Source: Sphyrna mokarran (taxonomy: Eukaryota). Taken from it: 64,000 bases of DNA. Under the pieces are notes generated by a model. The model made no database searches and was not told the origin of the DNA. It worked only from the letters and a program-made list of their open reading frames with translations. The stretch is taken from assembly GCA_024679065.1 (NCBI GenBank), contig JAGIQG010000008.1, forward strand, positions 14,136,001 through 14,200,000, given 5' to 3'. Positions 1,121 to 38,070 of this stretch are shown here, piece after piece; the first letter of the stretch is position 1, and every line of letters begins with the position of its first letter. A program made the position numbers and the translations under genes.

Positions 1121-1550
1121 CAGTAAAGTTTTACAACACCAATTTTAAATCCAACCAATTTATTTGATAGTAAATCCGCGAGCTTTCGATGCTATGCGCC
1201 TTCGTCAGGCAAATGCAGTGTTCTGATCTGTAGAGGCACTCATATCCACACAGACAGTTACAGATTGCTGATTAGAATGCGAATCCTTACATCTAACCTG
1301 CTATTCAAGTGTTAAAGTGGCTAACAATGTGTGTGAAGGGAATCCTGAGCATTGGTTAGAGAATTGTGTATTTTCTCCAGACAGCACAGTAAGTGAGGTT
1401 TTTTGCTAATCCAGGCAAGTTACAGGGGTTACAGATAGTGTGACATGAAGCCAAGATCCCTGTTAAGACCATCCAGCGACAGCGCAGAATTGCTGAGCAG
1501 AGACTGATAGCCAAGTTCCGCACACATGGGGACGGTCTTAACAGGGATCT
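1121..1550. mobile_element. Penelope-like element (PLE) remnant with inverted arrangement: minus-strand ORF end plus pLTR/3' UTR, then a plus-strand ORF-end fragment
   Basis: Plus 1474-1550 translates QRQRRIAEQRLIAKFRTHGDGLNRD (GIY-YIG C-terminal motif of PLE ORFs). Minus strand reads DGLNRDLGFMSHYL* from about 1474 downward. 17-bp inverted repeat 1454-1470/1534-1550. Confidence 0.8.
1174..1214 (-). ncRNA. Minimal type I hammerhead ribozyme motif (PLE-associated)
   Basis: Minus strand ATTTGC-CTGACGA-A-GGCGC-ATA-GCATC-GAAA-GC-TC-GCGGAT: intact CUGANGA/GAAA core, pairable stem I, palindromic AGCU stem III, CUC cleavage triplet; one mismatch in stem II. Confidence 0.65.
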
Positions 1551-2382
1551 GTAAGGGGAGAAAAGAGCTGGTATTTCAAATCCAGATTGTCAAAGCATTT
1601 TCTCAGCCTTTGAATGGTTTGTTACTGAAGGTGCTTCTGTAGATAAGGCAGAAAGAAAGGTTGTTTATGGTTACTGTAGTAATGAGTGGTTATTGTCTTT
1701 GGTGAGTTTTGTAGTCTTGTAAAGTTCACTTTGAATATTTTTAAATTTTAATGGGCTGGAAATACAACATCATAACATGACAAACGGTCAGCAATATTCA
1801 TCTGTGTTCCAGAACTACTAACCAAAATCTTAATCTGCTGTTTTGTAATGAATGGTGATCAATGCTGGAATAGTCATTATGAAATATTTACCTGTATTGT
1901 ATGCAAGATGTTTTCTAACATGGCTAAAAGCCTGGTTCTGAGCCACACATTTACAATGAACATTCCTCTTGCAGTAATATTAATCTTCCATTTGTAACAT
2001 TCCTTCTCTCTCTCAGCTCCGTAGCTGCAGTGTCACTTCAATTCCATGACCAAGCTCTGTTCAAATTCCTTCAGTCTACCTTGCCGCACTATCGTTTTCT
2101 TCTCCATTCTGTTTCATTTTTCCCTGTACAGGTCCATAGGAGGACTTCCGCATTGTAACTAATGGCATCTTGAACCTTAGTGCTCGTGTTTCTGGCTCTG
2201 ACTGACGAGGGGCAGGGTTCAACCTCTACTTCGGACAGTGGAGACCAGTATTCAATCTTTACATTCAATGGAATATTTTGATCCTGTGAATGGCTGTCAG
2301 TCTCATTAAACCACCCAACCTATTGGCTGGTATAACAATTGTTTCAGCCACGGAAGAACTGTTTCATGTTACTACCCATTCA

Positions 2383-2441
2383 GTGTCTCACAACGCCAAG
2401 ACTTTTTAGTGTGCTTACTCCAGTCCAATGCTGGCATCTCC
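2383..2441. mobile_element. Collapsed PLE-derived palindromic element (termini only)
   Basis: GTCTCACAACGCC joined to AAGACTTTTTAGTGTGCTTACTCCAGTCCAATGCTGGCATCTCC, matching both ends of the 9184-9390 element. Confidence 0.6.
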
Positions 2442-3994
2442 TGATCTGGAGAACAAACGCAGGGAATGGCTATTACAGGTAGTGTGTGTACATGTTCTTC
2501 TTGCCCATGAAGAACAGGGCTCTGTATATCATGTAACTTTCATCATATGTAATTGAGTGCCAATTGGTAATATGTTAACATATTTCTTAAGGAATGAGCC
2601 TCAGTCCCTTGCTCTCTCCACTTGTTCAAAACACTAAGTAAACTGCTAGTCATACTTCTGGTTCATCTTTGTCAATTTAGTATGTCTTGGAATTTTAAAC
2701 CCTAAAAATATACATTGTTACTTGCCATTTTCAACAGAACATCCATAGGGATTATGCAAATATGTGCTCCATGATGTACAAGAGGAAAGGATCTGAAATC
2801 TTGTGTGCAAGTTACAAGACACATCCTATCACTGGATCCCAACTTTAGACAGGACACTTGCTTTCACAAAGACAAAGTAGATTAAATGTACGTACACTAA
2901 TCTCCATCATTCTTTAGAACTTCATCTCACATCAAGTTTCAAGCTTTACTTACACAATTAATTTATGCCAAAAAAAATAAACTGCTCAACTATCCTACAG
3001 GGGGAATTCACAAGTATGTTTTCTTGCTAGTACAAGCTAGTGCAGTATTAGACAGATTTAATAGCATAGTCTGCAGTGATAGACATGGACATCTAGAGAA
3101 TGAAAATGATGGACATGCAACAGTTGGAAGGCATATCTAAATCAGAATTCAATGGCAATCTGAGGGAGGGCTGGGTGTAACAAAAGACAGTGAGATGCTA
3201 CTGAAGCAGTAGCCATTGGTGTGTGTTCACATGCAGTGGCTTGGATAAGAAGAATACACTGCTATCTAAATTGACAATCCTCAAGAGAAAAAATCTCATT
3301 CATTTTAAATGCATTTGCAAATTGGGAACTGGGAGGTGCATTACTAGCTGCATAAGTCCTAGCCTTTTCCAGTTCTTGGAGCTACAACATTTATCGCTAG
3401 GCTAGTTCAATTTCTGGTCAATGGTAACCTCCAGGACATTGATTTGAATGCCCATGTTCAGATCTCCACACATGCAACTGCACAAAACAACCAGTCAAAT
3501 GAACAATTCAAGTTGCCATTTCTAATAGATACTCAAACCATAGAAAATTATATTTCAGCAATACAGTATACACCATTCATTCACTATTGTCAATCACATT
3601 TTTATTAGGAGAAACAATCTTCTGGTATTCAGAACACTCAAAATATTAGAAAACTCTGGATAAATGAGTGCTTTGTAAATTATGGCTTCACAATAAATTG
3701 GAATTAAAATCCATTTTGTACAAAACCCAGTAAGTGTAGGGGCGTCAAAACTAAAAAAGTCACAAATAATAAAAGTCAGTAATAAATCGAATTTGGGATC
3801 CAGAAAAGACTTGTTTACCCAAAGTGGCGAGAATGTGGAAAACACTACCACAAGGACTAATTAGGACAAAGTAAGCGCAAGGGAGAAAAGATTAGAAGGA
3901 TATGCTGATGGGATTTGGAGAAGGCAGGTAAGAAGAGGTTCACGTAAATCATAAACATAGACCAGCGGAAAAACTAATCTGTTTCTGTTTATTT

Positions 3995-35586: not shown

Positions 35587-36069
35587 CTGATAAGAAAAAA
35601 GAAATTGCTTAACAAACCAGACCAAAACTAAAGTGGAACATGGTTTCAGTAATTGTTTTCTAACTTTAAATGGCCAAGTTTTGATGATGAAACTGGTTAA
35701 CAAATATAATACCTGCTAGCCGTGTTAAATTGAGAACATGTAATGAAGGGTTAAGTTCACACCAGCTCCCGCACTGGATCCCACCCCCCCACACACACAC
35801 ACACACACGCACACATATATTCCACCAGATTTGGGTGGGAGATTTTGTTGTAATAATTTGCTTTTTGAAGACTTGTCTCTGCACTTGTAAGGACACCGTA
35901 TTATCACATTTTGCACAACAATTTCCGGTAAGACTAATTTCTGATTGAAAATTAATTTATTTTATGGTTTTTTTTACCCTTCATTTAGCTCATGAACAAC
36001 TGTATACAATTTGCCCTGCTGCACCTCACTTCAGAATCTCCAGAAACATCAAAGAATCACAAATAAAAA

Positions 36070-37060
36070 CATTCCAACAGCTTTCATAGCATTTAGTGTA
36101 ACAAAATATCCTGACGTGCTTTACAGGAACATTATAAAATAAAAAATAACACTAAAAGACACAAAAGCAGATATTAGGCCACTACTGTCTCAGGTCTTAG
36201 AAGGTTGTGGGCCTGAAGGTAACATGGATAAAGAGAGGACAAAGTTATGGAGGAATCTGAAAACAAGGATGAGAATTATGAAGTCAATAATTGATGGGAG
36301 CCAACGTAGGTCAACCTCACAGGAGTGATAGGAAATAGAGTTAGCTGAGAGTTAAGATGGGCTAGTAGTGTTTTTGAATACCTCACAACTATGCAGGCAA
36401 AATATGAGAAACCAACCAAGGGTGCATTGGAATAGTTGAGTCTAGAAGTAATGAGGCATCAAAAGGGTTTCAACAGCAAATGCGTTGAGGCAGGAGTAAA
36501 GTCAGGCAATGTTACAGAGGTGGAACTAGGTAGTCTTAATGATGGCAGAAATAAGGGGTTGGAATCTTATCTTTGGATCAAATATGACATAAGGATTGCA
36601 AACAGACTAGCTTAATCTCAAACCATTCCCACTGACAGTGATGGAGTCAGCAATTAGAGAAGAGTTTGGAGTTGGGACCAAAACAATGGCTTCAGCGTTT
36701 CCCAGTATTCAACTAAAAGAAATTTCTGCTCGTCCACTTCTCGATGTCGAACAAACAATCAGATAATTTATAATGGAAAAGGAATCTAGAGAGAGGTGGT
36801 GGGGAGATAAAGCTGGGTGCTATGTCTTCAAGAGGCAGTATGTAGATGAGAAGTAGGAGATCGATTCTTGGGTATTGCAAGACAGACTGTACGGGAGTAA
36901 GGAAAGTCACTGCAAGTGGTTCTTCAGCTACAATTGGATAGTTATGAAGCAAGGTGAGGGCAGTTCTGATCAGCTGGATAATAGGTGTTAAAGAAGAGAA
37001 CGGTGTGGTCAAACATAACAAAGGCTGTAAACAGATTGAAAAAGACAAGGAAGAAAAGTT
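36070..37060 (-). mobile_element. Old L2-type LINE fragment
   Basis: Minus strand ...LQYPRIDLLLLIYILPLEDI RT remnant and L2-like 3' tail; inverted relative to the adjacent plus-strand L2. Confidence 0.55.
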
Positions 37061-37079
37061 TACTTTCTTCAGTCTATGA

Positions 37080-38070
37080 TCATCACTACCCTCAGAAAAC
37101 TGCTCCACTGCTACTAAATTATCAGACTGCTTACCCAATATCTGATCCTGAATGAGGAATTTTTTTTTCTAATTAAATACTGGGAAGACAGAAGCCATTA
37201 TTTTCAGTCTCCACTTCAAAATTCATCCCTTAGTCATTGACTCCATCTCTCTCCCTGCCAACAGTCTGAAATTAAATCAGTCTGCTTTCAGTATTTGACG
37301 TGGAGTCACCAGTATTGGACTGCGGTAAACACAGTAAGAGGTTTCATAACACCAGGTTAAAGTTCAACAAGTTTTTTGATAATAAATTCACAAGTTTTTG
37401 GGATTTGCCCCTTCGTCAGGTGAGTGGAGTCACCACTCACCTGACAAAGGGGCAAACTCCAAAAGCTTGTGGCTTTACTATCAAATAAACTTGTTCAACT
37501 TTATCCTGCTGTTGTGAGACTTCTTTCAATATCTGATCCAGAGATGAGCTCCTAGCTTCGCATCCATGTCAACACCAAGGCTGCCTAGTTTCACCTCCAT
37601 AACGCTGCCTGATTTTGCTCACTTCAGTTTATTTGCTGCTGAAGCCCTTAATCCATTTCTCCTTTGCATCTAAACTTAACTACTCCAACACATTCCTGGC
37701 TGGTTTTCCCCAGTCTACCCTCCATAAACTTAAAGTCATCCAAAACTCTGCTGCCTGACTTAATTTACACCAATTCTCATTTCATTCTTCTGCTCACTGG
37801 CCTACATTATCTCCTGATGTTGACTTTGTAATTCTCAAACCTTGGTTTTCAAAATCTTTTATGTCCTTGATCCTTCCACACCCTCTCCAATTCTGGCTTC
37901 TTGTGTAATTATAATTATTCTACGATAGATGGATAGATGCAGTCTAACTCAAACTCGAACTCCTTCCCCAAACCACTCCTCTCTTCTTCATATTCCTCCT
38001 TTAATCCGTCTCTTTGACCACGCTTTAGGGCATCTTTCCTGACATCTGCTTATGAGACTCAAAGTCCGAT
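37080..38070 (+). mobile_element. Old L2-type LINE fragment interrupted by a PLE palindrome
   Basis: CTAAATTATCAGACTGCTT...AAAGTCATCCAAAACTCTGCTGCC (IQNSAA) L2 motifs. Confidence 0.55.
37299..37522. mobile_element. PLE-derived palindromic element with decayed hammerhead cores
   Basis: Inverted arms centred on GTGAGTGG-AGTCA-CCACTCAC (37420-37440); 14-bp TSD 37285-37298/37523-37536 (12/14 identical). Confidence 0.8.

Follow-up and report, generated by a model that had tools for sequence, protein, structure and literature searches.

Penelope-like elements (PLEs), as covered by the published sections drawn on here, form head-to-head palindromic junctions and carry tails, target-site duplications (TSDs) and pairs of minimal hammerheads on opposite strands 100-700 bp apart. 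For the EN+ PLEs of the Neptune clade, the relevant parts of Craig et al. (2021; PMC8557442) and Arkhipova et al. (2013; PMC3846280) describe a C-terminal GIY-YIG domain, a Cys linker, 5' truncation, a head-to-head inverted and 5'-truncated copy, a junction palindrome, a one-sided tail of 30-40 bp and a TSD in some copies only. All of these recur in the elements reported here, the Cys linker being seen in their shark relatives; however, our TSDs span 12-16 bp as opposed to 8-10 bp in the Adineta examples, and there are copies here reduced to the pLTR only. Likewise, the minimal type I hammerheads of metazoan PLEs, as presented in portions of the literature (Cervera and de la Pena 2014, PMC4209133; Lunse et al. 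via PMC6765202), share with ours a short helix I, an extra nucleotide that falls after position 9 and before 10.1, the G10.1-C11.1 pair, a palindromic 15.2-16.2, the lack of a loop 3 and stems that are highly variable within a genome, and opposite-strand motif pairs have already been reported there. They differ in that helix II is 4-5 bp here and that the pairs in two of our copies (c3 and c5, see below) lie 9-22 nt apart rather than 100-700 bp. The supplementary files of PMC4209133 that were searched hold no shark entry, and our literature search found no description of shark copies of such elements.

Two further systems provide useful comparisons. Poseidon of Anolis (PAc; Frangieh et al. 2024, PMC11167929) belongs to a different clade, but the part of that study consulted describes a tail located 3' of the hammerhead and flanked by two RT start sites, a pair that would correspond to the tailed and tail-less ends seen here, and nicking and extension on both strands, which would fit two arms; the PAc ORF starts within the hammerhead. 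Animal non-LTR retrozymes, reported in the single chondrichthyan sampled (1/1) according to the available portion of Li et al. (bioRxiv 10.64898/2026.07.22.740005), are similarly non-coding, pLTR-derived and equipped with a type I hammerhead. They are, however, arranged head-to-tail with two same-strand ribozymes and can yield monomers and circles, whereas the arrangement here is head-to-head with one ribozyme per strand.

All copy counts and comparisons below refer to one window, the whole 64,000-nt stretch of the Sphyrna mokarran genome that was analysed (GCA_024679065.1, contig JAGIQG010000008.1, 14,136,001-14,200,000, forward strand). It contains five decayed insertions in and near ARID2, namely c1 (1121-1550), c2 (2383-2441), c3 (9184-9390), c4 (25681-26263) and c5 (37299-37522). 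A preliminary description of this DNA had regarded the five as related, and blastn indeed connects them all, c2 by a short match only (79% over 43 nt, E 3e-5). A profile run against the window recovered seven arms at E<=2e-23 and c2 only at E 0.06 and 3.2; three more matches all had E>3, and one at 49019-49043 (E 0.1) was judged a chance match on reading the sequence. We interpret c1-c5, with a probability of about 0.8, as five independent 5'-truncated insertions of EN+ Neptune-type PLEs from approximately four subfamilies in a cartilaginous-fish genome. Five pieces per 64 kb suggest that the genome-wide set is very large.

The connection to a coding element is clearest in c1. Here the sense 3' end of a putative Neptune-type PLE (1121-1474, minus strand) comprises the last ORF codons (1473-1432), the pLTR and a hammerhead (1176-1212, minus), and its outer end is tail-less with no detectable TSD. 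It is followed by an inverted piece (1475-1550, plus) with C-terminal GIY-YIG codons, whose last 21 bp (1530-1550) are an inverted duplicate of 1454-1474, such that c1 is a short inversion inside the ORF and not a full fold-back. LINE-1 5' inversions arise by twin priming, and c1 resembles them in that an inverted internal piece adjoins the end of the sense piece with a short duplication, but it is unlike them in having neither a poly(A) tail nor a TSD. The GIY-YIG ORF end (1477-1551 plus and 1432-1473 minus) is identical at 21/25 aa (84%) to an RT + Cys-linker + GIY-YIG protein of Heptranchias perlo, bearing out the earlier claim that c1 ties this sequence to such an ORF. Of the ORF, no more than the last ~35 codons lie in the window, and they match the C terminus of protein P0007 at 21/25 and 13/14 aa; P0007 has an RVT_1 match (E 5e-9) and a GIY-YIG motif at 543, the relative P0006 a Pfam GIY-YIG match below the curated cut-off (E 0.0017), and the 30-aa window peptide itself has no match in Pfam. 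The last ORF codons are also borne by c4. A Zn-finger-like Cys motif between RT and EN, outside the window, is present in 4/4 named shark relatives examined, and such a linker marks Neptune/Nematis in the published sections available. The Neptune-type assignment is a provisional one, based on this one motif shared with Nematis rather than on a tree. In a predicted protein of the catshark Scyliorhinus torazame the order is GIY-YIG, pLTR, c3/c5-type hammerhead and tail, and it matches c3 (19/28 aa) and c5 (22/43 aa), implying that a short-palindrome arm is the 3' end of an ORF-bearing element.

Head-to-head inverted pLTRs with 5' truncation are fully developed in c3, c4 and c5. In c3 a tail-less arm (9184-9265, minus), starting 4 nt upstream of the core of its hammerhead (9229-9265; G8>A and G15.2>A), abuts a tailed arm (9266-9349, plus; hammerhead 9266-9302, G12>A) with zero spacer, and a 41-nt tail follows (9350-9390, plus); the arms 9182-9265/9266-9349 are 83% identical. 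In c4 the order is a 37-nt tail (25681-25717, minus), a tailed arm (25718-26042, minus) with the ORF end, pLTR and hammerhead (core 25777-25805, 11/11, but the first pair of stem I is mismatched as C.A), and a tail-less arm (26054-26263, plus) with a hammerhead from 26176. Its arms 25780-25931/26054-26205 are 96% identical, the outer arms being 25718-25774/26207-26263. The centre of c4 (26030-26055, unstranded) is a 26-nt palindrome around the natural CATG of the ORF end, after which a 100-nt jump leads into the right arm at a 2-nt microhomology. At about 26205 a 4-nt deletion removes positions 15.2-17 of the right arm, and the lost nucleotides end at the cleavage site. In c5 a tail of about 37 nt (37299-37335, minus) precedes a tailed arm (37336-37429, minus; hammerhead 37388-37423, G12>A and G15.2>A) with natural sequence to ~10 nt upstream of the core, and the tail-less arm (37433-37522, plus; hammerhead 37437-37472, G8>A and G12>A) starts 8 nt upstream of the core; arms 37372-37427/37433-37488 are about 85-86% identical around a 5-nt spacer. 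The remaining copy, c2 (plus strand), has a tail fragment (2399-2441) and a weak antisense stub (2385-2400) without hammerhead. An intron-like stretch of 70-76 nt precedes the hammerhead.

The three fold-backs are flanked by plus-strand TSDs matching at 14/16 positions in c3 (9168-9183 and 9391-9406), 12/12 in c4 (25669-25680 and 26264-26275) and 14/17 in c5, or 12/14 once the 3 nt shared with the arm end are left out (37285-37298 and 37523-37536). Among 2986 random flank pairs, the share scoring as high is 0.0007, 0 and 0.0023, respectively, as opposed to 0.54 and 0.89 for c1 and c2, in which no TSD was found. The inverted arms, the tails of 37-41 nt on one side only (absent from c1) and the 12-16-bp TSDs hence stand as previously described, as does, together with the ORF link and the hammerhead cores, the derivation from Penelope. 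Arm identity (83%, about 85-86%, 96%) tracks TSD identity, as neutral ageing predicts.

The best reading of the fold-backs is as dead-on-arrival, 5'-truncated, inverted Neptune insertions, whose inverted shape, tails, TSDs and minimal hammerheads are already published for PLEs. On established PLE biology, the element protein would nick AT-rich DNA, reverse transcription would start at an internal RNA position immediately 3' of the hammerhead, and a frequent outcome would be a second copy, inverted and 5'-truncated, with a one-sided tail. The TSDs would then reflect staggered nicks 12-16 bp apart, and cDNA synthesis would begin at the tail end and stop early. The mirror arm might come, at slightly better than even odds, from the cDNA snapping back on itself where it has a short palindrome or microhomology; a little short of even odds goes to head-to-head joining with a second cDNA, for which the other nicked strand would serve as primer at the inner RT start site. 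On the tail-less side, the outer end is 83-88 nt away from the core in each of c1, c3, c4 and c5 (indel-corrected); this shared position in long and short copies points to a generic product of insertion and fits two RT start sites bracketing the tail. The short palindromes would be the extreme of a truncation series, and the copies would have decayed neutrally since insertion, with many changes at CpG.

The hammerheads themselves are recognizable. Two strict matches to CTGANGA-N10-18-GAAAGCTH occur in the window (1180-1208 and 25777-25805, both minus) against 0.04 expected, and 0/100 shuffles reach two. As the preliminary description had it for the three fold-backs, the motif or a decayed form is present throughout: 7/7 arms carry a minimal type I hammerhead, two with all 11 core bases and five with 9-10. 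The extra nucleotide A9.1 is present in all seven; the closing pair 10.1-11.1 is G-C in six and G-U in one, and positions 15.2/16.2 are palindromic GC in four, AC in two and deleted in one. Only c1 combines an intact core with an intact stem I (stem II, 4/5 pairs), as opposed to 0/6 fold-back arms. Between c1 and the left arm of c4 the core is identical at 14/14 positions and stem II at 5/13, the pattern expected of ribozyme selection in the parent elements. Stem II does differ between copies as claimed, but its supposed pairability stands only in part, with 74% of its cells pairing and two broken pairs in each c3 arm. Rfam yielded no hammerhead match (at E<=5 with the window and at E<=10 with two stretches of 91 nt), likely because this minimal form lacks helix III; c5 did score MIR841 at E 7e-8, well short of the threshold set for that family. 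In nearest-neighbour energies, which ignore tertiary contacts and protein help, a hammerhead-compatible fold costs 27.0-43.7 kcal/mol relative to the element-long hairpin in 6/6 fold-back arms, and in a c1 dimer the double-hammerhead fold reaches -3.3 against -24.1 kcal/mol for the best dimer. The hammerhead would have been selected in the parents, probably as a weak dimer- or protein-assisted ribozyme of tandem pLTR transcripts, and would be a passenger in the fold-backs: in read-through RNA the antisense arm, made first, would zip the sense hammerhead into a long duplex.

It had been proposed that the two short palindromes represent a replicating non-autonomous retroelement class with an active hammerhead on each strand, cleaving as dimers. 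Hammerheads are recognizable on both arms of all three fold-backs, RNAalifold recovers stems I and II unaided, and tandem retrozymes derived from pLTRs do exist according to the portion of the literature seen. Moreover, of 62 stem cells 83.9% are paired, against 74.3% after shuffling, with covariation also above shuffles (1/500 each), although the arms of one copy are not independent and the structure was drawn from these same sequences. Yet the two-sided pair changes (3) are reached by 176/500 shuffles, the change in stem I amounts to a CpG-type swap, and between-subfamily covariation is evidence for the parent elements rather than the palindromes. All four short-copy arms have core defects, and the stem II closing pair has a probability of <=3e-13 in the whole-element RNA. 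Each fold-back transcript has a single sense hammerhead, which precludes cis dimers, and this hammerhead is held within a long hairpin; the two opposite transcripts are mutually complementary, and, in contrast to retrozymes, no head-to-tail unit with >=2 same-strand hammerheads occurs among 7 TRF rows. The preliminary description had itself held that differing breakpoints would tell against such a family, and the distances of the inner ends upstream of the core are in fact 4/4 nt (c3), 10/8 nt (c5), about 239/126 nt (c4) and 266 nt (c1), different in 4/4 inverted copies with a hammerhead, with no junction shared by the one possible pair of short palindromes (0/1). The latter differ at 12/66 columns where the arms agree within each copy, stem II and an indel included, and by this measure appear to belong to different subfamilies; their 79-80% identity is little under that between arms within each copy, such that one broad family is conceivable. 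We consider this replicating class highly improbable, though two short copies are a small sample. Still less credible, to the point of near-dismissal, is an origin that has nothing to do with retrotransposition, be it as DNA-level fold-back or MITE-like elements or as inverted repeats arisen by chance: the small size of the palindromes, their long inverted arms and the flanking duplications would suit it, but not one-sided tails, TSDs of variable length, direct continuity with an RT/GIY-YIG ORF and a hammerhead motif far above chance. A scan of a bacterial/archaeal genome collection for stray copies returned 0.

An alternative closer to truncated Neptune insertions, which we hold to be unlikely, is a preferred RT stop at the hammerhead 5' edge (where the RNA might begin, be processed or be blocked by bound protein) coupled with occasional re-mobilisation. 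Head-to-head solo pLTRs of ~200 bp would be made in bulk and some, ribozyme-silent, re-copied in trans by the autonomous protein, given that they keep the tail and the RT start region and that their own hairpin prevents self-cleavage. Truncation may indeed be non-random, since both short copies (2/5) break off upstream of the core at a distance of 4-10 nt (p 0.006-0.023 under a uniform model, post hoc). In the published sections seen, pLTR sequences alone suffice for mobilisation in trans in Adineta, and insertion in vitro works without hammerhead cleavage (PMC11167929). The G12>A shared by both c5 arms could stem from an already dead template, but G12 is part of a CpG, where two independent decay events can happen, and c3 has complementary decay at this CpG. 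Further, the two junctions and subfamilies differ, the tail-less end is identically placed in long copies, and no homologue came up for a peptide that crosses the c3 junction, itself a weak test. The fuller version, to which as a whole we accord the same low likelihood, joins this stop in shark Neptune elements to a cleavage-proof short class that would seed long double-stranded RNA hairpins in host introns, and to deletions ending at the scissile bond, such as that in the c4 right arm, as footprints of template cleavage in vivo. For the Anolis element, the RNA-seq in the portion of PMC11167929 consulted does not show such in vivo cleavage.

Finally, truncated Neptune insertions amount to an annotation result: shark PLE remnants with the textbook inverted structure, whose hammerheads are missed by Rfam and which can pass for microRNA precursors, as c5 with MIR841, or for MITEs. 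Examined genome-wide, their inner breakpoints, arm differences and cleavage-site deletions would bear on the origin of arms and tails, i.e. snap-back as against two primed cDNAs, and on whether the PLE hammerhead ever cuts its template in vivo.

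The five related insertions of the preliminary description, c1 (1121-1550), c2 (2383-2441), c3 (9184-9390), c4 (25681-26263) and c5 (37299-37522), are indeed homologous to one another, and their proposed anatomy is borne out. Here, c3, c4 and c5 are fold-backs, i.e. head-to-head inverted repeats with arm identities of 83%, 96% and 85%, each with a tail of 37-41 nt on a single side (the claim had been about 40 nt) and each flanked by a target-site duplication (TSD) of the kind claimed (12-16 bp), with 14/16, 12/12 and 14/17 matches respectively; these are far above random (shares of 0.0007, 0 and 0.0023 among 2986 random flank pairs). 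The same flank comparison detected no TSD for c1 and c2, whose flanks are not above random. After indel correction, the distance to the core (the conserved hammerhead bases) is 83-88 nt for the tail-less ends of c1, c3, c4 and c5 and 123-127 nt for the tailed ends. The inner breakpoints lie upstream of the core by 4 and 4 nt in c3, 10 and 8 nt in c5, about 239 and 126 nt in c4 and 266 nt in c1. While c1 and c4 have 231 nt of the terminal repeat (pLTR) of a Penelope-like element (PLE) in common at 86.6% identity, the short palindromes c3 and c5 are 69-78% identical to c1 and c4, i.e. they are of another type. A search for more copies inside the window returned none that was convincing, a candidate at 49019-49043 being rejected as chance, and a scan of bacterial and archaeal genomes for stray copies found 0.

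The link to the end of a GIY-YIG ORF also stands: c1 carries the last codons of the ORF twice, at 1477-1551 on the plus strand (21/25 aa identical to the C terminus of a Heptranchias perlo protein) and at 1432-1473 on the minus strand (13/14 aa identical to the same C terminus), and c4 reaches the ORF end as well. The Heptranchias relative is 643 aa long and combines an RT domain with a Cys-rich linker and a GIY-YIG motif, and every named relative of the element's protein comes from a shark, which points to a cartilaginous fish as the host. A Cys linker between RT and endonuclease is described as marking Neptune and Nematis (PMC8557442), and, going by the linker motif and the host, we call the putative parent Neptune type. 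A Pfam search with a 30-aa peptide from the window gave no match, and two low-identity matches (37% and 41%) among the 5 hits of one search were dropped as probably spurious. The suspicion that c3 and c5 have no long parent is countered by a predicted protein of Scyliorhinus torazame, which reads through a GIY-YIG domain, the pLTR, a c3-type hammerhead and the tail, and matches c3 at 19/28 aa and c5 at 22/43 aa; hence, the short arms are the 3'-terminal ~125 nt of ordinary long elements. Stretches of the element's ORF or pLTR are also included in the shark gene models for XRCC5, PPP1R12A-like, septin 5a and follistatin-related 5, where they are probably annotation artefacts or exonised fragments and a likely sign of high copy number.

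The minimal type I hammerhead motif claimed for the arms was recovered in all seven arms of c1, c3, c4 and c5. The strict core pattern occurs 2 times in the window as against 0.04 expected, and the remaining 5 arms keep 9-10 of the 11 scored core bases. An extra A follows the core in 7/7 arms and a G-C pair closes stem II in 6/7, both of them features (an extra nucleotide after the core and the closing pair) that Cervera and de la Pena (PMC4209133) name as characteristic. RNAalifold recovered stems I and II unguided from 6/7 arms, the right arm of c4 being omitted owing to a deletion. The Rfam hammerhead models gave no match to these motifs in the window and two shorter stretches; an Rfam match to MIR841 reflects a long hairpin only, and loose core matches at 12069 and 60712 (both plus) were dropped, as they are without GC at 15.2/16.2 and without homology to the family. 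Between c1 and the left arm of c4, identity is 14/14 positions in the core and 45/51 in the downstream arm versus 5/13 in stem II and 5/8 in stem I. Across 8 aligned rows, which are non-independent and from which the structure itself was drawn, 83.9% of 62 stem cells pair, versus 74.3% in shuffles (1/500) and 19-38% in slid controls. Two-sided changes occur in 3 pairs, a number reached in 176/500 shuffles; a swap in stem I can come from CpG decay, and we did not accept the G-C/A-U swap there as true covariation, both changes being of the CpG type. The c1-c4 comparison and the stem-pairing statistics agree with a ribozyme that would be under selection in the parent elements, and are supportive rather than conclusive.

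What does not follow is the proposal that the short palindromes are a non-autonomous hairpin-ribozyme class with ribozymes on both strands. The inner breakpoint differs in every copy, a variation named beforehand as refuting such a class, and c3 and c5 differ in 12 of the 66 columns in which each copy's two arms are identical. We consider the fold-backs to be ordinary truncated, inverted Neptune-type insertions (probability about 0.8). An inverted 5'-truncated copy with a one-sided tail of 30-40 bp has already been published for PLEs (PMC8557442), palindromes at head-to-head PLE junctions with TSDs of 8-10 bp have been read as self-priming (PMC3846280), and pairs of minimal hammerheads, one on each strand at a spacing of 100-700 bp, are already reported (PMC4209133). 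Among the openly accessible papers searched, we found none on short PLE palindromes as a class of their own, or in sharks. A 44-aa frame across the c3 junction had no match in protein entries that were either longer or of similar length; the test is weak, and we do not read it as evidence of absence.

That the palindromes are a replicating class whose two strands both give active ribozymes is unlikely, given the core defects in 4/4 arms of c3 and c5, a hammerhead-compatible fold that costs 27.0-43.7 kcal/mol in 6/6 fold-back arms by folding energies, and the placement of the sense motifs: minimal hammerheads are described as needing a partner motif within one RNA (PMC4209133; PMC6765202), but the head-to-head arrangement puts them on complementary RNAs. 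In the predicted fold of the fold-back RNA, 29-35 of the 36-37 bases of a hammerhead have their pairing partner elsewhere than in the motif, and with transcription from either strand the antisense arm comes first. In c4, the first pair of stem I is mismatched in the left hammerhead, and the right one has lost positions 15.2-17. For the intact motif of c1, a double hammerhead reaches -3.3 versus -24.1 kcal/mol for other folds, energies that omit tertiary and protein effects; the Anolis PLE ribozyme is reported to depend on its protein (PMC11167929). A preferred stop of RT, followed by re-mobilisation of ribozyme-silent palindromes, is unlikely too, though less so; in its favor, both short copies end within 10 nt of the core (p 0.006-0.023 under a uniform model for 2/5 copies, a comparison chosen post hoc). 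Thus, the observation of the preliminary description is confirmed and its interpretation partly supported.

As to how ordinary insertions acquired an inverted arm, the tailed arm would be the first cDNA. In vitro, the protein of an Anolis element is reported to nick and extend both strands with a preference for AT-rich sites, and RT to start at two internal sites bracketing the tail, ribozyme cleavage being dispensable (PMC11167929). For the mirror arm there are two possible origins: a snap-back copy, towards which we lean slightly, or, almost as plausibly, a second cDNA whose synthesis the other strand primed at the inner start site. The former is favored by the perfect center of c3, the natural CATG at the center of c4 and the same stem II type in both arms within each copy; the latter accounts for the fixed tail-less end and for the lopsided center of c4, with its 11-nt fold-back, after which 100 nt are skipped at a 2-nt microhomology. 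Unstable palindromes may suffer later deletion, which would explain the 100-nt gap equally well, and the geometry of c1 is that of a twin-priming inversion as in LINE-1. Snap-back via stem I itself was rejected, as it would put one hammerhead in a loop, yet both arms carry one, as was run-off at the cleavage site, since the sequence runs on through the core in 7/7 arms.

Over 210 aligned nt, the two arms of c4 differ by a single indel, a 4-nt deletion in the right arm (26201-26208), which removes the missing hammerhead positions and ends exactly at the scissile bond. It possibly marks where the template was cleaved and RT jumped; plain slippage between 2-nt repeats explains it equally well, and such slippage is seen in c1 at the same place. 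Candidate GT-AG introns are present, just upstream of the hammerhead, in the pLTRs of c1 (1223-1297, minus) and c4 (25820-25895, minus, mirrored at 26090-26165, plus). Both have a donor-like AG|GTTAG 89-90 nt upstream of the core, a motif with a ~5% chance occurrence in 240 nt, and two acceptor-like AGs, giving an intron of 70-71 or 75-76 nt that is retained in the genomic copies; a branch-point-like motif at a suitable distance is present in c4 only. The candidate resembles, in length and position, the 75-bp intron described for Drosophila Penelope, which begins 46 bp after the start site and ends at helix I (PMC4209133). The right arm of c4 has its natural 5' end at an initiator-like YYANWYY (26055-26061), 125 nt upstream of the core, which could be where a transcript starts; the motif has a chance occurrence of 1.4% per position and is not intact in c1. 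Given these chance frequencies, the intron and start-site motifs are leads only. Further, arms of c1, c3, c4 and c5 have an AATAAA with a G/T-rich stretch after it, ~15-20 nt beyond the cleavage site on the 3' side (e.g. 26218-26223). It is kept in 5/7 arms, with all four subfamilies represented, and may be a polyadenylation signal ahead of the RT start region.

The window has a G+C content of 38.7% and a CpG observed/expected ratio of 0.24. It also holds a decayed U2 snRNA-like sequence (12398-12597, plus; just under the gathering score of 46 at 45.1 bits, E 9e-6), probably a pseudogene; a broken LINE with an RT domain (54938-57309, minus; Pfam RVT_1, E 5.5e-22), presumably CR1-like; a minisatellite (32050-32266; a 27-bp unit present 8 times with 99% matches), apparently within another repeat; and many copies on both strands of a dispersed SINE-like family (4166-4618, 6515-6788, 15205-15426, 43044-43191, 49336-49609, 52194-52402, 59605-59891 and 62858-63123), which we take to resemble shark HE1-type SINEs. 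The host gene is ARID2, on the minus strand: matches to solved human ARID2 chains identify an exon at 57487-57921 (E 5e-33) and the C-terminal end at 6298-6462 (E 2e-11), and a 1004-aa frame at 16375-19389 (minus) is, by its position, presumably another of its exons. Hence, c1 and c2 lie beyond the last coding exon, and c3, c4 and c5 lie in ARID2 introns, where the three fold-back hairpins would be intronic double-stranded RNA in the ARID2 pre-mRNA.
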